In this document: positions 2,219 to 48,337 of the stretch, piece by piece
Numbering within the stretch: position 1 is the first letter of the stretch
How the letters are laid out: each line of letters opens with the position of its first letter
Assembly: GCA_947570695.1 (NCBI GenBank)
Contig: CANOVB010000005.1
Location: 67,487-131,486, forward strand
Length of the DNA stretch: 64,000 bases
Direction of reading: 5' to 3'
From: an uncultured Clostridium sp.
GTDB taxonomy: Bacteria > Bacillota > Clostridia > TANB77 > CAG-508
Position numbers and translations under genes: made by a program
The notes under the pieces: model-generated
What the model was told of the DNA's origin: nothing
Databases searched by the model: none
Seen by the model: only the letters and a program-made list of their open reading frames with translations

Positions 2219-4564
2219 TTAATTATTATTTGAGTTAAATGATGTTATTGCATCTTCATTATCGAACTTATAAGATAAATTTGATTCATTATTTTGAATT
2301 GGATCCATATCATTTGGATTATCTGGTTTAGCATGGAAATTAATATTTCTTAAATCAAATTTATTTTTGCTATAATCATCATTATCACTACCAGCTGTTG
2401 ATATTCCATTTGTAAATTTATTAAAATTATATTTTTTAATTTTTTGTTTTTCTTTATATCTTGATTCCAAGAAATCGATTTTTGCTTGACCAACAAGGTT
2501 TTTACCTTTTAAATCTTTTGTTTTATATATAATGAATTTAAATTTTAATGCCTGAACCTTACCAGCCTTAAAGTTTGGTATCCATTGCCACTTGATGCTC
2601 TTGTAAGTATCATCATATTTACCTTGATCTGTCTTATAATCATGAGTAAACATCCAACGTCTCTTATCTCCAAGTTCTTTTTCCCACCATTCATTATCTT
2701 CTGGGGTGTTATTACCAAATATAACTTTAGTAGTACAGTTAGCTAAAATTGTTTGTCTAAAGTTATAATCATTTTTAATACCAAATTGTGATAAGTTTTG
2801 AGATGATATAATTGTTCCAACTCTATATTTTCTATATAAAGTAAATATATCTTCTGTTGCTTTACATACAAAAGGTGGAAATTCATCAATATATAGGAAG
2901 TGGGGGATTCTAGTTTTTTCGTTTCCTGGTCTAGATAATACTGATTGTTGCATAAGTAGTATAAAGAATAGACCAAAAGCTTTGTGTATACTAGCTCCTA
3001 AATCGCCACGTCGTGTACATACTAAAGTTACATCTCCATTTACTAAAGCTTTATCATAATTTAAATTATTTGCTCTGTTACATAATATATTTCTAACACC
3101 TGGATACCTAAGTAGATTTTCAAGTTGTGAAGCAGAAGCTTGTAAGTATCTTGCTGTTTCTTCACGACCTTGAGCAGTTTTATAGAATGTTTTCTTAAAG
3201 TATCCAAGCTGAATTTTATATTCTTCAGCAAGTTCTGGATATTGCTTCATTTGTTCTGCCATTTGTTCTATTAAATCAAAATCATTTAATAGTTCTAATA
3301 AATCTTCTAAGTTTGGAAGTAAGCCTTCATGTTCTCTAGGATAAACTTCTTTTAACATTAATACTAAATTTTCAATGGCTTGAGTAACTATATTTTCCAT
3401 AAAAGCTTCATCATGATTTCCAAAATTTGGTACTTCTTCAGATGCGTACATTCTTTTTAGGATAGAAGATATAGCTATTGAAGTTTTCATAGGATCTTCA
3501 TAAGTGAATGGATTTAATCCTATAGAGCTATTGTCATTTGGGTCTATGATATGATATTTAACACCAAAGTTATTTGCAATATCCTTTACATGAGTTATTG
3601 ATTCATAATCAGGAGCCATATAAGTTATACCAAGATTTTTGTAAATTGAATTTTCACCATCATAATTATAAAGCATTTTTGCAAAATATGCTTTGAAAAC
3701 TTTTTCTTTACTTGGTACAGGTGTAATCATATTTAAATTAAAGTTTTCATTTATATAATCATTAGAAAAAGGACAAGAAAGAGTAGCTATATTAGTACGC
3801 AATGCTGTATATCCTAATTCTTTTGAAGTTTCTTTGAAAAAATATTTTTTCTCTAAATCTCTTGCAATCATTGGCTCAAACATCATTGAAGTTTTTCCTG
3901 AACCAGATACACCAACAATTAAAGTAGATTCAAAACGCCTAGATTCTGGAGTTTTGATTGTTTTTCCAGTTTCTCTGTCTCTACATAAGAACATTTCACA
4001 AGTAAATGGACCCATTCCAATAGATTTGTCTGATAAATCTATTCCGCCATAATCCCAAATTGATTCTTTAATGTATAATGTGTCATCAACTTTTGTATAT
4101 AACCATTTAAAAAATGGGAATATTGTACATACTGGAATATACCAAGCAAATGCTGAAAAAGCAGGCTTTATTAAATCCATAAAATTTGCAATAATATAAG
4201 AATAGTTTGGTACAGAGAAAAGTAATAACCATCCTAAATGGTTTATCCATTGAACAATCATTGATATTACTACTATATGTAACGCTGAAGCGTATATATA
4301 AAAGAAAGATGTTTTTGTGTATTTATCTGTAGCAAATTTTGATGAAGGAGAGAAGTAAAATGCAAATACTGGACATGCTAAAGCTAGTGTATATGTTATT
4401 GGACCCCAATAAGATACAGATAATCCAGAGAAAACTATAAATAGTACTTCTACAATTCTGTCAACACAAATATAGATAGAAATCAATGTTAAAATATAAG
4501 TAGCAAAGGTATTCCTATCAGTTTTTAATAATTTCAAAAATTTATCAATGTATTTCATAATCAT
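2219..4564 (-). CDS. Membrane-anchored TraD/TraG/VirD4-like (type IV coupling protein family) P-loop ATPase
   Basis: N-terminal roughly 170 aa is polytopic and hydrophobic. Walker A GVSGSGKTS. Walker B-like FLYIDEFPPF followed by TIISSQNLSQF, resembling the TraG-D_C region. N/D-rich C-terminal tail. Confidence 0.65.
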   Translation of the reverse strand: MIMKYIDKFLKLLKTDRNTFATYILTLISIYICVDRIVEVLFIVFSGLSVSYWGPITYTLALACPVFAFYFSPSSKFATDKYTKTSFFYIYASALHIVVISMIVQWINHLGWLLLFSVPNYSYIIANFMDLIKPAFSAFAWYIPVCTIFPFFKWLYTKVDDTLYIKESIWDYGGIDLSDKSIGMGPFTCEMFLCRDRETGKTIKTPESRRFESTLIVGVSGSGKTSMMFEPMIARDLEKKYFFKETSKELGYTALRTNIATLSCPFSNDYINENFNLNMITPVPSKEKVFKAYFAKMLYNYDGENSIYKNLGITYMAPDYESITHVKDIANNFGVKYHIIDPNDNSSIGLNPFTYEDPMKTSIAISSILKRMYASEEVPNFGNHDEAFMENIVTQAIENLVLMLKEVYPREHEGLLPNLEDLLELLNDFDLIEQMAEQMKQYPELAEEYKIQLGYFKKTFYKTAQGREETARYLQASASQLENLLRYPGVRNILCNRANNLNYDKALVNGDVTLVCTRRGDLGASIHKAFGLFFILLMQQSVLSRPGNEKTRIPHFLYIDEFPPFVCKATEDIFTLYRKYRVGTIISSQNLSQFGIKNDYNFRQTILANCTTKVIFGNNTPEDNEWWEKELGDKRRWMFTHDYKTDQGKYDDTYKSIKWQWIPNFKAGKVQALKFKFIIYKTKDLKGKNLVGQAKIDFLESRYKEKQKIKKYNFNKFTNGISTAGSDNDDYSKNKFDLRNINFHAKPDNPNDMDPIQNNESNLSYKFDNEDAITSFNSNNN

Positions 4565-4731: not shown

Positions 4732-6288
4732 TTGAAAAAAATAGAAATTACCGATTTTTTTAAAGGAATAATATCATTAGTAATATCTCAAATTCTTATA
4801 AAAATTTTTGGAGTTATTTATAGTTTATATATAACAAATAAAAATGGATTTGGAGATGAAGGAAATGCTATATATATGAGCGGATATCAGATATATGCAT
4901 TATTACTTACAATATCTTCTATTGGAGTTCCGAATGCAATTTCTAAAATTATTTCGGAGAAAAAATCCATAAAAGATTACACAAATTTAGAAAGAATATT
5001 CAAAATATCAGTATTTGTTTTTGCAGTAATTGGATTTTTTGGAACAGTTACATTATTTATTTTTTCTGGTTTTATTGCTGAAAACATTTTACAAATACCA
5101 GAAACAAAATTGAGTTTAATGGTTTTATCGCCAGCAATATTTTTTGTTTCAATAAGTTCTGTTGTTAGAGGATATTGCAATGGAGAGAATAAAATATATG
5201 TTACAGCCAAATCGCAGTTTTTTGAACAAATAATCAAATCAGTATTAACAATTACACTTGTAGAAATATTATCAAGATTTCCAAATTCAAATACAGAAAT
5301 TTTAGCTGCAATCGCAAATTTTGCAACAACTTTAGCGACTTTTTGTAGCCTAATGTACATATTAAAAAAGTATAGAAAAATAAAAAAACAAAATATATAT
5401 TTAAGTAAATATAATTTTCCTAAAGAAAGAATATTTACTATAATAAGAAAAGTTTTGATAATATCAATTCCTATGACTACAAGTGCTATTTTAACATCAT
5501 TAGGAAAAAATGTTGATTCTGTTACAGTAGTTAGAATACTTAAAAATATTTTAGGAGAAGAAACTGCAATTATAAAATATGGAATATTAAGTTCTAAAGT
5601 GGATATATTAATAGCATTACCATTATCATTTAATATTGCAATTTCAACAGCGTTAATACCAGAAATATCCAGAAAGAAGGCAATTAATGATATATCAGGA
5701 ATAGTAAAAAAAATAGAAACTTCTATATTAATTACTATTATAATAGGAATACCATCTACATTTGGAATGTGTTTTTATTCTGAGCAAATTTTTGATTTAT
5801 TATATCCAAGAGCAAATGAAGGAGCAATTTTACTTAGCATAGCATCTTTTAGTATAATATTTTCATTACTTGTACAGACTATAAATGGAATCCTTCAAGG
5901 TCTGGGGAAAAATAATGTACCAGTTTTAGCATCAGTAATTGGATTATTAGTAAAAATATTTTCTAATATAATATTAATAAGAGTAGAGGGAATATATGAA
6001 AAAGGAGCAATTATAGGAAATATATTATCAAATATAGTTTCATTTATAATTGTATATATTGCATTAATAAGAAATATTGATATAAAATTAAATTTGCTTA
6101 AAAAAGGGATAAAACCTATTTTAGCAAGTGCGATTATGATATTTTTTTCATTAAAAATATATAATTTTTTAGTATTAAAAAATATAAATATTAATATTTG
6201 TACAATAAGTTCTATTTTCTTTGCTATACTAATTTATATTTTTTGCTGCTTTTTTATGAAAATTTTAAAGAAAAATGAAATCTCGTGA
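4732..6288 (+). CDS. spoVB: MOP-superfamily polysaccharide/lipid II flippase (SpoVB/MurJ-like)
   Basis: 518 aa with about 14 predicted TM segments. TTG start preceded by GAGAGAGGGAAAG. Size and architecture are typical of SpoVB in spore formers; the symbol is tentative. Confidence 0.6.
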   Translation: MKKIEITDFFKGIISLVISQILIKIFGVIYSLYITNKNGFGDEGNAIYMSGYQIYALLLTISSIGVPNAISKIISEKKSIKDYTNLERIFKISVFVFAVIGFFGTVTLFIFSGFIAENILQIPETKLSLMVLSPAIFFVSISSVVRGYCNGENKIYVTAKSQFFEQIIKSVLTITLVEILSRFPNSNTEILAAIANFATTLATFCSLMYILKKYRKIKKQNIYLSKYNFPKERIFTIIRKVLIISIPMTTSAILTSLGKNVDSVTVVRILKNILGEETAIIKYGILSSKVDILIALPLSFNIAISTALIPEISRKKAINDISGIVKKIETSILITIIIGIPSTFGMCFYSEQIFDLLYPRANEGAILLSIASFSIIFSLLVQTINGILQGLGKNNVPVLASVIGLLVKIFSNIILIRVEGIYEKGAIIGNILSNIVSFIIVYIALIRNIDIKLNLLKKGIKPILASAIMIFFSLKIYNFLVLKNININICTISSIFFAILIYIFCCFFMKILKKNEIS

Positions 6289-14821: not shown

Positions 14822-16099
14822 TTACGTGATATTCAATGTTTTGCCGTTGGTCAAGACCACTTGTGTTACGAGTCCCAATTTGTTGGTGTTGAAGCTCGCA
14901 GCGTCGTAACAGAACCGATAGCCGTCCTGAGGGCGGTCATAGATGGAACTGACGAACACCTGATTATCCCTGATATAGCAGAACTGCTTATCAGAGATGA
15001 AGCCGAAAGCGGTGATGTTTGACATGTACCACCCTGTATAGATTCTCGAGGCGATAATCGTCCCATTGAGATACAGGGAGCCGTCTGTAAGCATCAGAGT
15101 GTTGCTTTCAACTGTGCCCTTGGTGTACAAGGTAGCATAGGTGTCCTTTACGACAGCGTAGGTTTCCTTAGCAATCCACTTGTCGTTTGTGGAGGTGAAT
15201 TGCTTCAGGGTGTAAGTGGACTTCTCTGTAACGATTTCCGAGAGGAAACCATTGCTGTCAGTCCTGAAGGTCTTGAACTTGCTGTCCAGGGTAACCTTCT
15301 CCGCAGAGTACCAGTTTCCGAAAGTGAAACGGTACAGAGTACCATTGCTTTCGTAGAGGTACACGTTGTAGCTGGTATCGAATCCCAAGAATTTAGCACC
15401 CTTAAGGGTGTCGGACAGCCGGACGCCGTGAGTTGCATTGAGAACGCTCTTTTCGTCTTTGCTCACAATGATGGAAACCTTCAGGTTGCCAAACTCGTAA
15501 GCGTTACGAACGAACTCGCTCTCAGCGTTGGTGTACATTTCAACACGGCTGGTGTTATTTCCCGGCCTCTGAGGAACAGAAGGCTGAGAAGGCTGGCTGG
15601 GTTGAGACGGCTGGGAAGGCTGAGTCGGCGTACTGGGAACGGTGCTACCAGTAAGAGACTGGTTACCACTTGTGGTTTGCACCGAAGTTGCCAGATCGTC
15701 GCTGTTGTAAAGCAGACATGTTACGCCAGAAGCGTACCAAGTCGATTGCTTACCATCGCTTCCAACGCTAATCAGTGCACCAGCGCTGGTGACGTAGAAG
15801 AAATCGCCATTTGTGGCAAAGCCGTTGTAACGGGAACCGGAGCCAGCAGAGTTGCTCGCAAGAACGGTTCCATTGTTGTTATACACGGTGCTGCCGATGC
15901 TGTAAAAGCTTTTGCTGGGAACGTGGGCGTCCTGCCGGCGGTCATAGGTGTACAGCTTGTACCAGGTGCAGCCCGAGGAGGCGTCATCATAGGTAAAGCC
16001 GTACGGCGCTGTGTCGGCGGTCGTGGCGGCGAAAGCAGTGGGGCAGACCCCAAAGAAGCAGCACACAACCAGGAACAATGCGATCAAAGATTTTTTCAT
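14822..16099 (-). CDS. Secreted two-domain protein of unknown function with a (PSQ)n linker; GC-rich and foreign in composition
   Basis: Start is ATG 16099 (MKKSLIALFLVVCCFFGVCPTAFA|ATTAD, a signal peptide) after GAAAGG. The linker is PSTPTQPSQPSQPSQPSQPSVPQRPG. GC3-rich codons differ from all neighbouring genes. Confidence 0.8.
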   Translation of the reverse strand: MKKSLIALFLVVCCFFGVCPTAFAATTADTAPYGFTYDDASSGCTWYKLYTYDRRQDAHVPSKSFYSIGSTVYNNNGTVLASNSAGSGSRYNGFATNGDFFYVTSAGALISVGSDGKQSTWYASGVTCLLYNSDDLATSVQTTSGNQSLTGSTVPSTPTQPSQPSQPSQPSQPSVPQRPGNNTSRVEMYTNAESEFVRNAYEFGNLKVSIIVSKDEKSVLNATHGVRLSDTLKGAKFLGFDTSYNVYLYESNGTLYRFTFGNWYSAEKVTLDSKFKTFRTDSNGFLSEIVTEKSTYTLKQFTSTNDKWIAKETYAVVKDTYATLYTKGTVESNTLMLTDGSLYLNGTIIASRIYTGWYMSNITAFGFISDKQFCYIRDNQVFVSSIYDRPQDGYRFCYDAASFNTNKLGLVTQVVLTNGKTLNIT

Positions 16100-16247
16100 G
16101 TTAGTCAACCTTTCTGTGTTAAAATAAATCTTCAAAACCATGTTAGTTCAACAAATAGCCAAAAGGTCAGCTAAATAAAGTTGAACATCAAATCCCATAA
16201 AATCATTATAGCACAAACTAGTAAAAAAGGCAAATTTATGTAAAGCT

Positions 16248-16308: not shown

Positions 16309-16749
16309 TTAGAAATTCGCGTTTGGATCATCTGATAATTTGTACAGTAAATAGTCTGGGTCAACCTGAACGATATAGTGACTTCCACTTTTGGTGGTGA
16401 AAAGAAACCAGTCGGGTGCAATTTCTTCAAATGACTCTACTAGAGTCGTATTGAGATATTTTACACTGGTATCTGTAACACTAACAATAACGGAAGCTCT
16501 TTTACCCTTTGTAGGGTAACATAAGCAGACTCCAACTGTGGATTTATGTTTTAACTGAAGTTCAGTTATGTTAACAAACCATTCCACAGGGAAAAAATGC
16601 TCTACGTCGTCAATCTTGACAATGTACCGTTCAAAACCACTCATGTATACTGTCCACGAGGCCTCATATGCTTCTCCAACTTCTAAAAGCCTAAAATTGC
16701 ATTTTGGACCGCCGTGGATATCAATAGAACCATTGTACACGAGTTTCAC
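16309..16749 (-). CDS. Hypothetical 146-aa protein (island 1, intermediate GC)
   Basis: GTG start 7 nt after GAGGTG. It has its own terminator at 16248-16287. No motif recognised. Confidence 0.6.
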   Translation of the reverse strand: MKLVYNGSIDIHGGPKCNFRLLEVGEAYEASWTVYMSGFERYIVKIDDVEHFFPVEWFVNITELQLKHKSTVGVCLCYPTKGKRASVIVSVTDTSVKYLNTTLVESFEEIAPDWFLFTTKSGSHYIVQVDPDYLLYKLSDDPNANF

Positions 16750-17437: not shown

Positions 17438-18451
17438 TTAAATTTCAATACTTATAGCATGAGCTATACCAGGTATTGATTCACCTTGCTGGGTACTGGT
17501 TGAATTCATTAAAGCTCCAGTTGCTATCATTAAAACTTTTTTATATTTTTTTTCTTGTAGCATTTTATAAACATATCCTGAAAATACACTTGCAATACAA
17601 CCACAGCCAGAACCACCAGAATGAGTATCTTGATTTTCTTTATCAAAAATAAGAACACCACAATCATTATAATTTGATTTTATGTTGTACCCTTTGGAAG
17701 AGGCTAAATCTATTAGAATATCTTTTCCAATATGACCTAAATCACCAGTAAATATTGCATCATAATAACTTGGATTTCTTCCTGTATCTTTAAAATGAGA
17801 GATAAGAGTATCTTCAGCAGCACCAGCCATAGCAGCTCCCATATTGTTTGCATCTTTTATACCCATATCAACAATTTTTCCAGGTGTAAAACTTGTTATA
17901 AATGGACCATTTCCATTTTTAGTAAGAACTGCACATCCAGCACCTGTGACAGTCCACTGACTTGAAGGGGGCCTTTGATTTCCTAGTTCTAGTGGAAATC
18001 TGAATTGCTTTTCAGCACTACAAAAATGACTTGATGCAGAACATATTACATTATTTGCAAAATCACCATCTATAAAACTTGAAGCAACTATTAAACTTTC
18101 AACAAAAGTTGAACATGCGCCAAATAAACCTATAAAAGGTATATTAGTTTCTCTTAATCCAAAAGAAGATGCAATACACTGATTTAATAAATCACCAGCA
18201 AAACAAAAATCTATATCACTTGAAGCAATTCCTGATTTAGATATAGCCATATTAACAGTTTCTTTAACTATTTTACTTTCAGCACTTTCCCAACTTTTTT
18301 CACCCCAAAATTCATCATCCAAACATTGATCAAAGAATTGATGAAGTGGACCTTCTTTTTCCTTAGGACCAACTATAGAAGCTGTAGTAGCAATATTTAT
18401 TGGGTTAGATAAAATATAACTTTGATTACCAACTTTTTTTATAAAAATCAC
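17438..18451 (-). CDS. spoVAD: Stage V sporulation protein AD (thiolase-fold, DPA-binding)
   Basis: IVGPKEKEGPL...FAGDLLNQ...GACST...GGSGCGC blocks are typical of SpoVAD. The exact start is uncertain because the GTG at 18451 abuts the AAGGAGA RBS. Confidence 0.88.
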   Translation of the reverse strand: MIFIKKVGNQSYILSNPINIATTASIVGPKEKEGPLHQFFDQCLDDEFWGEKSWESAESKIVKETVNMAISKSGIASSDIDFCFAGDLLNQCIASSFGLRETNIPFIGLFGACSTFVESLIVASSFIDGDFANNVICSASSHFCSAEKQFRFPLELGNQRPPSSQWTVTGAGCAVLTKNGNGPFITSFTPGKIVDMGIKDANNMGAAMAGAAEDTLISHFKDTGRNPSYYDAIFTGDLGHIGKDILIDLASSKGYNIKSNYNDCGVLIFDKENQDTHSGGSGCGCIASVFSGYVYKMLQEKKYKKVLMIATGALMNSTSTQQGESIPGIAHAISIEI

Positions 18452-18476
18452 TCTCCTTAAAAAATAATGACCGATG

Positions 18477-18581
18477 GGGGACGTTTGTTAATGGACATTT
18501 TTGTCCGTTAGGGATAGATATTATTTATTTTTTAAACATCTGTAATAAAGAGGACAAAAATGTCCATTAACAAACGTCCCC
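18477..18581. repeat. Palindromic element PE-30: perfect 30-bp inverted repeats with a 45-bp spacer, inside the spoVAC-spoVAD intergenic region
   Basis: ggggacgtttgttaatggacatttttgtcc (18477-18506) and its exact reverse complement (18552-18581). The same arms recur at 47584-47647. Confidence 0.9.
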
Positions 18582-18590
18582 AAAAGGATA

Positions 18591-19055
18591 TCAAACTAGT
18601 GTTAAACTTTGAGTATTAAATATAATGTAAATTAAACCAACAATAATACTTGAAGAAATACCATACACAAGAACTGGTCCTGCAATAGTAAACATTTTTG
18701 CGCCAACACCCATTACATATCCTTCTGATTTATATTCCATAGCAGGTGAAACAATAGAATTTGCAAATCCAGTTATAGGTACTAAAGAACCAGCACCAGC
18801 AAATTTACCAATTTTGTTAAATATATTTAATCCTGTTAAAAAAGCACTAGCAAATACTAAAAGCATAGATACAATAGTATAAGAATTTGTTTCATCTATT
18901 CCACGGATTTTACACATTTCAAAAATGATTTGACCAATAGCACAAATTAATCCGCCAACCCAAAATGCATTAAAACAATTTTTTAATATTGGAGAATTAG
19001 GCGTTTTTTCATCTACATAGGTTTGATATTCTTCTTTACTTTGAATAGGTTTCAA
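18591..19055 (-). CDS. spoVAC: Stage V sporulation protein AC
   Basis: TPNSPILKNCFNAFWVGGLICAIGQ...GAGSLVPITGFANSIVSPAMEYKSEG is typical SpoVAC. TTG start 7 nt after AAAGGAGA. Confidence 0.9.
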   Translation of the reverse strand: MKPIQSKEEYQTYVDEKTPNSPILKNCFNAFWVGGLICAIGQIIFEMCKIRGIDETNSYTIVSMLLVFASAFLTGLNIFNKIGKFAGAGSLVPITGFANSIVSPAMEYKSEGYVMGVGAKMFTIAGPVLVYGISSSIIVGLIYIIFNTQSLTLV

Positions 19056-37195: not shown

Positions 37196-37435
37196 CATAG
37201 TAAAAAAGGCGTTTGATTAAGAATTAAGTAGTAAATAAACTTTTTAAAAGAGAGCTTATGGTTGGTGAGAATAAGTAAAAGAATTTACGAAATCTACTCT
37301 TAAGAGTTTCTAGAAAACTAGACCGAGTTATTGCAGGTTATAGCAATTTGAAAGATGGATTAGATTAATCTAAAAAAGGTGGTACCGCGATATATTCGCC
37401 CTTATGTATTTTTTACATGGGGGCGTTTTTGTTTA
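37196..37435 (+). promoter_or_regulatory. T-box leader, probable Ser (UCU) specifier
   Basis: T-box sequence aaaaaaGGTGGTACCGCG (37372-37389). Terminator cgcccttatgta-ttttt-tacatgggggcg plus T5 (37397-37430). Stem-I AGAGA and GGTGAGA elements. The specifier-loop candidate is GAAA-TCT-A (TCT at 37293-37295). serS is the third gene downstream. Confidence 0.85.
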
Positions 37436-43599: not shown

Positions 43600-43788
43600 A
43601 GAATAGGGTGTAAGCTAACTTAATATGATTACTGGTTAAAAATCTGTTATAGTATTGCTACTATTTTTTTTCTTAACCTATGGTAGTAATTACCACTAGA
43701 GCATCCGCCGAATCTTTCGATAACTCTAGACCTCGTCAACTATTTTTAAAATTTATATGTATAAAAATTTTAAAGTAGTCCTGGCGCT
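43600..43788 (-). ncRNA. glmS ribozyme
   Basis: The minus strand reads A|GCGCCAGGACU...GACGAGGUCUAGAGUUAUCGAAAGAUUCGGCGGAUGCUCUAG. This matches the conserved core AGCGCCAGAACU...GACGAGG...GUUAUCGAA..UUCGGCGGAUGCC directly upstream of glmS. The 3' limit is approximate. Confidence 0.9.
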
Positions 43789-44087
43789 AACCTTTGTTTT
43801 AAATAATATACTCCTTTCTAAACTTTTGCTTACAAACTAGAAATTAAAAATTTTTTCTAGTAACCTATTTCTTTTATATAATATTCGAATTTTTTTAAAA
43901 TGTCAATATTATTTTTTGGATGTTAATGAATGTATATATATAAATGCATTCTAAATATTGAGGCTCTAAGAATTAAAATTTAAATAATTCTGGTAAAACA
44001 TTGCTAAAAGGAAATAAATATTCTTTACATGAAAAAGTAATTATAATATAATAGCTATGTATTAAAAATAGATTGGAATTGGTATGT

Positions 44088-46722: not shown

Positions 46723-47586
46723 ATGGAAATAGCAAGTAATTGGAAAGATTATGAAATTTTAGATATGTCTGATGGTGAAAAGCTTGAAAAATGGAATAAT
46801 ATTATTTTAATAAGGCCAGATCCTCAGATAATTTGGAAAGAAAAAACTTTCCCTGAAAAATGGAAAAGTGCTGATGCTAGATATAGCAGAAGTAATACTG
46901 GTGGTGGAGCTTGGCAATATCATAAGAATTTGCCAAAAGCTTGGCAAGTTCATTATAAAGATTTAACTTTTAATATAAAACCAATGGGGTTTAAACACAC
47001 AGGTCTTTTCCCAGAACAGGCAGTTAATTGGGATTGGATGATAAATAAAATAAAAACAGATGGTAGAAAAGATATAAAAGTATTAAATCTTTTTGCATAT
47101 ACAGGAGGAGCAACAGTAGCTTGTAGCTATGCTGGTGCTTCTGTTTGTCATGTTGATAGTTCAAAAGGTATGGTATCATGGGCAAAAGAAAATATTGCAT
47201 CATCAGGACTTAGTGACAGACCAGTTAGATTTATAATTGATGATGTTACAAAGTTTGTTAATAGAGAAATAAGAAGAGGAAATAAATATGATGCAATAAT
47301 AATGGATCCGCCTTCTTATGGAAGAGGAAAAAATGGAGAAGTATGGCAATTTGAAAACAATATATCTGATTTAGTAGAATTATGTGCAAATGTTTTATCA
47401 AATGAACCATTATTCTTTTTGATAAATTCTTATACAACAGGGATTTCATCAAAAGTTTTAGAAAATATTTTAAGTTTAAAATTAAAAATGAAAAACGGTA
47501 AATTATCATCAGGAGAAATTGGTTTACCTATGAAAAATTCAAAATTAGTGCTTCCATGTGGAATATATGGAAGATGGGAGAGATGA
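46723..47586 (+). CDS. Class I SAM-dependent (RlmI/RlmK-like) methyltransferase
   Basis: VLNLFAYTGGATVACSYAG (motif I) and IIMDPPSYGRGKNGEVW (the DPPxY-type motif IV). Confidence 0.8.
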   Translation: MEIASNWKDYEILDMSDGEKLEKWNNIILIRPDPQIIWKEKTFPEKWKSADARYSRSNTGGGAWQYHKNLPKAWQVHYKDLTFNIKPMGFKHTGLFPEQAVNWDWMINKIKTDGRKDIKVLNLFAYTGGATVACSYAGASVCHVDSSKGMVSWAKENIASSGLSDRPVRFIIDDVTKFVNREIRRGNKYDAIIMDPPSYGRGKNGEVWQFENNISDLVELCANVLSNEPLFFLINSYTTGISSKVLENILSLKLKMKNGKLSSGEIGLPMKNSKLVLPCGIYGRWER

Positions 47587-47647
47587 CCCTTAGGGGACGT
47601 TTGTTAATGGACATTTTTGTCCATTAACAAACGTCCCCTAAGGGTCA
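47584..47647. repeat. Palindromic element PE-30, compact copy (64-nt near-perfect palindrome overlapping the methyltransferase stop codon)
   Basis: tgacccttaggggacgtttgttaatggac-atttttg-tccattaacaaacgtcccctaagggtca. The arm sequence is identical to 18477-18502. Confidence 0.9.
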
Positions 47648-47659
47648 AAAGGAGATATA

Positions 47660-48337
47660 ATGAAAGATTTAAAAGTACTATATGAAGATAATCATATAAT
47701 AGTGGTAGAGAAACCTGTGAATATTCCATCACAAGGGGATAAAACTGGTGATGAAGATATGCTTTCTATTATAAAAAAATATTTGAAAGAAAAATATAAT
47801 AAACCAGGAGAAGTGTATTTAGGTCTAGTTCATAGATTAGACAGACCAACAGGTGGTGTAATGGTTTTTGCAAGAACCTCAAAAGCCGCTTCCAGACTTA
47901 GTGAGCAAATAAGAGAAAAACAAATGCATAAAAAGTATTTGTGTATAGTTGATGGGAAAATGGAAAATACAAAAGGAAGTATGAAAGATTTTCTTTTGAA
48001 AAATGAAAAAACAAATACAAGTAAAGTTGTTAAAGAAGGAACTAAAAATGCAAAAGAAGCAATTTTAGATTATGAAGTAGTAAAATATAATGAAGAAATA
48101 AATATGTCAGTTGTAAAGGTTGATTTACATACAGGAAGGCATCATCAAATAAGAGTTCAATTTTCATCAAGAGGTCATAGTTTATCTGGAGATCAAAAAT
48201 ATGGAACAAGGGGGCGAGGAAAAGGACTTGCTCTTTGGGCATATAGTTTAAGCTTTTTACATCCAATAACAAAGGAAAGAATAGAATTTGAAGATTATCC
48301 AGAAGTTACAGGAAGCTGGAAAATTTTAGAAAGTTAA
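47660..48337 (+). CDS. RluA-family pseudouridine synthase (no S4 domain)
   Basis: LGLVHRLDRPTGGVMVFARTSKAASRL and HTGRHHQIRVQF. Confidence 0.88.
   Translation: MKDLKVLYEDNHIIVVEKPVNIPSQGDKTGDEDMLSIIKKYLKEKYNKPGEVYLGLVHRLDRPTGGVMVFARTSKAASRLSEQIREKQMHKKYLCIVDGKMENTKGSMKDFLLKNEKTNTSKVVKEGTKNAKEAILDYEVVKYNEEINMSVVKVDLHTGRHHQIRVQFSSRGHSLSGDQKYGTRGRGKGLALWAYSLSFLHPITKERIEFEDYPEVTGSWKILES

Follow-up and report, generated by a model that had tools for sequence, protein, structure and literature searches.

In a 64,000-nt stretch of DNA from an uncultured Clostridium species (the window), the palindromic element between the sporulation genes spoVAC and spoVAD is a REPIN-like inverted dimer, and a second copy in the same stretch is its fused short form; both belong to a RAYT/TIRYT-type Y1 transposase system of uncultured mouse-gut Clostridia, the gene of which is known from related MAGs. 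We consider it likely that the element is non-autonomous mobile DNA of the REP/REPIN type, deletion-derived from a TIRYT-like Y1 unit and moved by the enzyme of that unit.

The initial annotation of the spoVA junction (locus 1) had described an exact 30-bp inverted repeat around a 45-bp AT-rich core, lying in the 139-nt gap between two minus-strand genes and carrying the sub-palindrome GGAC-ATTTTT-GTCC in each arm. The sequence and its ORFs bear this out (Table 1): dinucleotide-preserving shuffles are expected to yield 0 such matches, the sub-palindrome is present in both arms, and a SpoVAE-like gene follows spoVAD on the same strand. The window has a mean GC content of ~26%. An nhmmer profile of the arm spans 18463-18511 and 18545-18592, and the TGA stop codon of spoVAC (18591-18593) overlaps the final base of the long-form element, with 8 nt separating the opposite end from the first base of the spoVAD ribosome-binding site AAGGAG. 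Pfam labels for SpoVAC and SpoVAD were taken from identical genes.

Table 1 Coordinates of the two element copies in the window and of the genes that flank them. Positions are those of the window; a dot marks features to which no strand applies.
Feature	Position	Strand	Basis
Left 30-bp arm, GGGGACGTTTGTTAATGGACATTTTTGTCC (locus 1)	18477..18506	+	Sequence, inverted-repeat search
Right 30-bp arm, exact reverse complement of the left arm (locus 1)	18552..18581	-	Sequence, inverted-repeat search
AT-rich asymmetric core, 45 bp (locus 1)	18507..18551	.	Comparison with other cores and transposase flanks
Full long-form element, REPIN-like inverted dimer of extended arms and asymmetric core (locus 1)	18467..18591	.	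Arm profile and outer consensus
spoVAC, 154 aa, upstream cistron	18591..19055	-	ORF; PF03862
spoVAD, 337 aa, downstream cistron	17438..18451	-	ORF; PF07451
Short-form element, both arms fused at the GGAC-ATTTTT-GTCC tip (locus 2)	47583..47648	.	Sequence, arm profile
SAM-dependent methyltransferase gene, upstream of locus 2	46723..47586	+	PF10672
RluA-family pseudouridine synthase gene, downstream of locus 2	47660..48337	+	PF00849

The locus-1 element also occurs in L010, a further sample of this species. Window and L010 differ at 4 of 7,014 aligned bases, all of them within the element (window 18507-18565; L010 2901-2959), three in the core and one in an arm; these differences stem either from hypermutation linked to the hairpin or, as coverage is 5.7x, from errors in sequencing. 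The start of spoVAD also varies between genomes (window 18442-18460): where the relative L032 has ATG (AAGGAG-N6-ATG), the window and L029 have ATA, and the start chosen by the ORF finder is a GTG lying 1 nt past the ribosome-binding site.

The same arms had been reported a second time at 47584-47647 (locus 2). This copy is real, and it is organised differently: it forms a single perfect palindrome of 64 nt (arms of 30 nt, loop of 4 nt), in which the two element arms overlap, so that the exact match of the second arm is limited to its outer 20 nt. Judged from the sequences, the short form would correspond to the long form minus the DNA between the two GTCC direct repeats, with the GGAC-ATTTTT-GTCC tip as its loop. 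The sequence of the locus-2 element is identical in four further samples of the species (L038-L041). Here the TGA stop of the methyltransferase gene (47584-47586) is the TGA within the terminal ATGACC of the element, and the ribosome-binding site and ATG of the RluA gene (ATG at 47660) follow the element end by 11 nt. A search of the 64-kb window with the arm profile found no third copy.

Alignment of 22 distinct arm-plus-flank sequences, drawn from the window and related genomes, defines the arm unit as ATG(A/T)CC-N4-GGGGAC-N10-GGAC-N6-GTCC. The length of 30 originally given for the arm therefore holds for the exact repeat, and the full arm extends to ~40 nt, reading ATGWCC-N4-GGGGACGTTTGTTAATGGACATTTTTGTCC in the window when its outer extension is included. 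This conserved extension accounts for the left-hand atgacc that had been pointed out as common to both loci. The accompanying likeness of the right flanks (aaaagga) is, judged from the sequence, a coincidence: at locus 1 these letters are the N4 plus the outer motif (AAAA-GGATAT), and at locus 2 they are the ribosome-binding site of the next gene.

The 45-bp core was compared with the cores of four elements (L005, L007, L006 and L003) and with the flanks of the transposase genes in L002, L021 and L025 (described below). One side of the locus-1 core (GTCC-TCTTTATTACAGATGTTT, minus strand) is similar to TTTTATACATATGTT, a motif found at the border of the transposase gene, and the other side, GTCC-GTTA-GGGATAGAT, represents a degenerate form of the GGGGACAS module. 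The motif ACATA(C/T)GTATAAAA lies on either side of the transposase gene and is found again in the cores of gene-less elements, including that of the window, so the small elements would appear to be deletion derivatives of a transposase-bearing unit. An exact GGGGWSAS module, GGGGACAC or GGGGACAG, occurs 4 nt inside the arm in three loci (L006, L014 and L020), which make up three of the six occurrences in 208 kb.

Beyond the window, the exact 20-mer of the arm was found at 9 loci in two MAGs among 185,579 genomes (species representatives), namely Clostridiales bacterium UBA7001 and the mouse-gut MAG iMGMC-941, a count that rests on MAGs fragmented at repeats; these loci also carry diverged arm copies. 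Related arms (GGGGACGTTTCT..GGACATTTTTGTCC) were recovered by a degenerate pattern search on 8 metagenome contigs, all of low GC, where the GGGGACGTTT and GGACATTTTTGTCC blocks are conserved and the intervening stretch varies, yet agrees between the two arms of an element. The degenerate arm pattern had no match among viral contigs and the element none in a plasmid collection, in which homologues of the transposase are at most 36% identical and annotated only as 'transposase'. Contigs encoding the window proteins come from mouse-gut and other metagenomes.

Assemblies of these genomes carry traces of the repeats. Many transposase-bearing contigs are just 0.9-1.0 kb long (proteins P0020-P0035), as is to be expected if both transposase flanks are multi-copy repeats that break assemblies; together with contig ends located at arms, these contigs indicate that the repeats appear to fragment metagenome assemblies of these mouse-gut Clostridia. 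One contig, L012 (3489-3652), departs from the others inside the element and near its own end; it was taken for an assembly artefact and not for an alternative allele.

The initial annotation had recommended looking for a cognate TnpA(REP)/IS200-like gene, and a class-2 Y1 gene flanked by the arms is indeed present in both related MAGs. In L002 (iMGMC-941), arms at 4431 (+) and 5414 (-) enclose a 262-aa ORF that matches Pfam Y1_Tnp (PF01797) with 52.5 bits (cut-off 23) and scores 53.3 bits against NCBIfam NF047646, REP_Tyr_transpos, under its 80-bit cut-off. In L004 (UBA7001), a homologue 65% identical to the L002 transposase comes after an arm. Arms at 3911 (+) and 4828 (-) surround the Y1 gene of L021, and L025-L027 are arranged alike. 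Homologues with 76% and 83% identity occupy the same position as in L002, between a GH15 gene and radA, and are likewise flanked by inverted arms, the variable 10-mer of which is species-specific (GTTAGTTTTT or GCAGGTTTTT in place of GTTTGTTAAT). The order GH15 - Y1 - radA is common to three lineages, and the gene for protein P0022 lies between these same neighbours in all 24 contigs read. Across four lineages a Y1/HUH transposase is the only gene found between the arms. The window itself contains no homologue of the transposase.

At the L002 gene, two generations of arms can be distinguished (5330-5427 and 4420-4500): the inner arm is degenerate, of the GCTAGTTTTT type, and resembles the arms of L021, and the outer arm is of the GTTTGTTAAT type and identical to the dispersed copies, which suggests a turnover of repeat variants.

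More than 3,000 homologues of the transposase were found, of ~250-260 aa, and the proteins at the related MAG loci measure 254-262 aa. The HUH motif, the catalytic tyrosine and Y---NP do not vary among 24 homologues (H60, H62, Y119, N123 and P124); Y---NP is the signature of all class-2 (TnpA_REP-like) proteins, and IS608 has a Q at this place (Quentin et al. 2018, PMC6006769). Searching the PDB with a single transposase sequence retrieved nothing relevant, and a sequence profile retrieved 4ER8 alone, at a non-significant E-value (0.59). The AlphaFold model (mean pLDDT 91) has as its top PDB fold match this same entry, E. coli TnpA_REP with a bound REP hairpin (E 1.9e-6, target-normalised TM-score 0.67), ahead of the ISDra2, IS608 and IS200 transposases. 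An extra C-terminal domain of ~100 aa is helical in the model; HTH_23 was matched in 6 and HTH_28 in 5 of the 24 homologues, with weak E-values, and PF13384 is annotated on homologue P0102. The enzyme is a class-2 (TnpA_REP/RAYT) Y1 transposase that most resembles the TIRtron/TIRYT variant.

TIRtrons are RAYT-like genes (TIRYT) located between long inverted repeats that often share GGGGWSAS and form moderately abundant families of singles and dimers (Di Nocera et al. 2013, PMC3733652). TIRYT proteins have been equated with subclass 2.1, a group of long proteins bearing an HTH at the C-terminus (Bac_DnaA_C, HTH_23 or HTH_28), and no REP-like sequences were found near their genes (Quentin et al. 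2018, PMC6006769); subclass 2.1 of TnpA_Y1 is probably the same as RAYT group 1, which occurs in Clostridia too (Bertels et al. 2017, PMC5581495). The system described here agrees with TIRtrons in having a RAYT-like Y1 gene flanked by long terminal inverted repeats (~40 nt; L002, L021 and L025) rather than short tagged REPs, a long protein with a C-terminal HTH, a moderately abundant repeat family of singles and inverted dimers, and a repeat that starts with GGGG. It differs in that the arm reads GGGGACGT, matching GGGGWSAS at 6 of 8 positions, and in its hosts, uncultured low-GC gut Clostridia, whereas the text of Di Nocera et al. 2013 (PMC3733652), figures and species tables aside, mentions neither Firmicutes nor Clostridia. 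In contrast to the result reported for subclass 2.1, the association of repeat and gene is clear here. The stop-abutting placement described below and the relation of long and short forms are not described for TIRtrons, subclass 2.1 or RAYT group 1 in the portions of these papers considered here.

Comparison with the REPIN-RAYT systems of Pseudomonas and Enterobacteria (Bertels and Rainey 2011, PMC3116915) and with E. coli REP/BIME elements gives a similarly mixed picture. Shared features are two inverted units with a short spacer that form a long hairpin, a dispersed, extragenic repeat often found as inverted pairs and located between co-directional genes, a repeat-flanked transposase at one fixed chromosomal locus, and a fold closest to that of E. 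coli TnpA_REP. The transposase, placed alike in three lineages, may also be single-copy and vertically inherited. Unlike REPIN-RAYT, however, the unit is ~40 nt long with stems of 20-30 bp instead of 5-13 bp, and the enzyme is ~100 aa longer, carries the HTH domain and falls under the REP_Tyr_transpos cut-off. Membership of the classical tagged REPs, defined by GTAG or an unpaired CGTC, was considered and rejected: the arms begin with GGGGAC and contain no GTAG, and a CGTC-tagged assignment fails because CGTC occurs solely within the paired ACGTCCCC and because such families have 8-9 bp stems.

With IS200/IS605 the system shares the HUH/Y1 catalytic core, the lack of target-site duplication and a subterminal hairpin at the transposase-proximal left end, which in L021 has a 17-bp stem, the right end forming none. 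An IS200/IS605 insertion sequence was nevertheless rejected as a description: Y---NP stands where IS608 has Q, the protein has 254-262 aa, no tnpB was seen beside the Y1 gene, the gene keeps to a syntenic locus instead of occurring in multiple copies, and the ends are symmetric and inverted instead of asymmetric left and right.

We propose that two inverted ~40-nt terminal repeats around a short remnant core would result from internal deletion of a unit in which the same repeats flank the single-locus HUH/Y1 gene. The enzyme, encoded elsewhere in the chromosome, would recognise the repeats as single-stranded DNA hairpins, cut and rejoin them without target duplication, and so move the element into short spacers of co-directional genes, beside the upstream stop codon. 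As single-stranded DNA, the elements at loci 1 and 2 are predicted to fold at about -35 and -37 kcal/mol, respectively. From the arms that flank the gene to an enzyme that mobilises the element, we infer every step by analogy with IS200/IS605 and E. coli TnpA_REP. Most of the REPIN-RAYT and TIRtron systems characterised so far come from Proteobacteria, with a small number of other phyla represented, and no such family from Clostridia is described in the portions of that literature considered here. The present family offers the large subclass 2.1 a clean repeat-enzyme pairing, in which filled sites can be compared with empty ones, and a compact system for testing DNA recognition by HTH-bearing RAYT-like enzymes.

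The HTH domain also allows a different reading, in which the repeats are double-stranded GTCC-N6-GGAC sites for a domesticated Y1-HTH protein or another regulator and are kept as a regulon or as chromosome-organising sites instead of being mobile at present. Conservation of the C-terminal HTH and of the chromosomal locus across species would fit such a role, as would the recurrence of GGAC/GTCC modules at fixed spacing and the identity of the 30-nt arm in the window and both MAGs, the transposases of which are only 65% identical. The distribution of the copies makes this improbable, however, since they lie in unrelated operons of no common function, follow stop codons instead of occupying promoters, and are lineage-specific insertions missing from close relatives.

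A classical MITE, that is, a deletion derivative of a DDE-transposase IS moving by cut-and-paste with target-site duplication, would share the long perfect terminal inverted repeats, the short AT-rich core and the range of element sizes (69 to ~320 bp). Yet no copy read has direct repeats at its ends, the flanks showing inverted symmetry instead, and in the loci read no DDE transposase gene lies between the arms, which in four lineages enclose the Y1/HUH gene only; we regard this origin as very unlikely. Of the dispersed palindrome of REP/MITE type originally proposed, the dispersed REP character stands and the DDE-type MITE does not, owing to the missing target-site duplication. The small palindromic elements Correia (Neisseria), ERIC, RUP and BOX also lie within transcription units, where their long RNA hairpins can be processed or can stabilise mRNA; they are either linked to DDE-type mobilisation that duplicates TA or another target, or no transposase is known for them. 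The element described here differs from them in lacking a duplication and in having an associated Y1 enzyme.

Empty sites in related genomes reveal what the two window loci look like without the element. In relatives with SpoVAD proteins 94, 91, 86 and 82% identical to that of the window, the spoVAC-spoVAD spacer measures 96 (unrelated in sequence), 38, 1 and 10 nt, respectively. At locus 2, in relatives with RluA proteins 95, 91 and 87% identical, the two genes are separated by 18 nt that include a ribosome-binding site, adjoin as TAGATG or overlap in ATGA. All of them lack the element, and the upstream protein is of native length at both window loci. These empty sites show that each of the two copies in the window is a species-specific insertion. 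The initial annotation had named a one-off duplication as the alternative if only two copies existed and relatives carried the sequence as conserved operon spacer; the 9 loci in two MAGs and the spacers of relatives at both loci speak otherwise.

In the relatives L043 and L042 the methyltransferase and rluA genes overlap (ATGA) or abut (TAGATG), junctions that indicate translational coupling; in the window (47583-47662) the 64-nt palindrome lies between them and rluA is preceded by an AAGGAG site of its own. Since ATGA appears on either side of locus 2, the element was suspected of bringing its own ribosome-binding site and ATG. This was rejected as a general rule because the flank with the spoVAD ribosome-binding site is homologous to that of element-free relatives, and because in the closest locus-2 relative the 18-nt spacer itself supplies a ribosome-binding site.

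Nearly all copies sit between co-directional genes. The distance from the upstream stop to the GGGG/CCCC core, taken by hand from arm and ORF coordinates, is 6 or 9 nt in 13 of 14 copies, the stop being supplied by the TGA within the terminal TGACC or else by a stop codon that directly abuts TGTCC. Downstream, 21-27 nt separate the core from the start codon, the ribosome-binding site of which comes immediately after the element. Long copies favour one orientation relative to transcription, the TTTTATACATATGTT-bearing side of the core facing the upstream stop in 7 of 8. This stop-abutting placement could stem from a target preference of the enzyme or from selection that favours harmless sites. 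That the Y1 enzyme truly targets the upstream stop codon and inserts the element precisely there is a tentative proposal that we hold to be rather doubtful; if such targeting were real, this would be a stop-codon-targeting hairpin element that turns tightly spaced or translationally coupled gene pairs into hairpin-separated cistrons.

In the mRNA sense, the spoVA spacer is predicted to fold at -58.5 kcal/mol (z -9.2 against shuffles) and the locus-2 RNA at -57.1 kcal/mol (z -12). The strong stem of the spoVA spacer ends 13 nt ahead of a U6 run, the gap being bridged by weak outer pairs only, and a terminator scan picks up nothing but the small GGACATTTTTGTCC sub-hairpin; a strong stem with a U6 run 13 nt later does not look like a canonical terminator. 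Known RNA families were also considered for the element and rejected: no Rfam family matches it at gathering thresholds, and at E <=1 it matches only sub-threshold, generic miRNA-precursor hairpins. An origin as a cis-regulatory RNA (terminator, attenuator or processing site) that evolved in place in the spoVA operon, with the second copy a one-off duplication, would account for the very stable hairpin and for the weak outer pairs followed by a U6 run ahead of the spoVAD ribosome-binding site, but it is refuted by the empty sites in relatives, has no Rfam family at threshold and only the small sub-hairpin in the terminator scan on its side, and is scarcely credible for a sequence that flanks a transposase and recurs, in other genomes, at 9 or more unrelated loci.

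A mobile element of the REP/REPIN type may nonetheless have acquired a secondary regulatory use. If transcribed, it would form a very stable hairpin between the cistrons (about -58 kcal/mol), which could protect the 3' end of the upstream mRNA, attenuate readthrough or offer a cleavage site to a double-strand RNase; we infer mRNA stabilisation, partial termination and such cleavage as candidate effects. With a 30-bp perfect RNA duplex at a stop-abutting site in an operon required for spore dipicolinate uptake, an effect on expression would be directly testable. The arm and the element end together also create a promoter-like TTAACA-16-CATTAT directed toward spoVAD (18464-18491, minus strand), a weak match, at 9 of 12 consensus positions only, that does not amount to a sign of function.

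Other features of the window lie outside the two elements. A 439-aa ORF (14822-16141, minus strand) has a signal-peptide-like N-terminus and PSQ repeats and lies in a stretch of 51% GC, as against ~26% for the genome; it adjoins a 146-aa ORF (16309-16749), and both are located between spoVAE and a YgjP-like gene. The two genes are absent from the relatives L029, L032 and L036, and L033 has a partly similar 411-aa gene at this place; the segment 14822-16749 looks like a separate acquired insertion. Two structured RNAs were detected in the window at Rfam gathering thresholds, a T-box leader at 37203-37406 on the plus strand and a glmS ribozyme at 43624-43799 on the minus strand.
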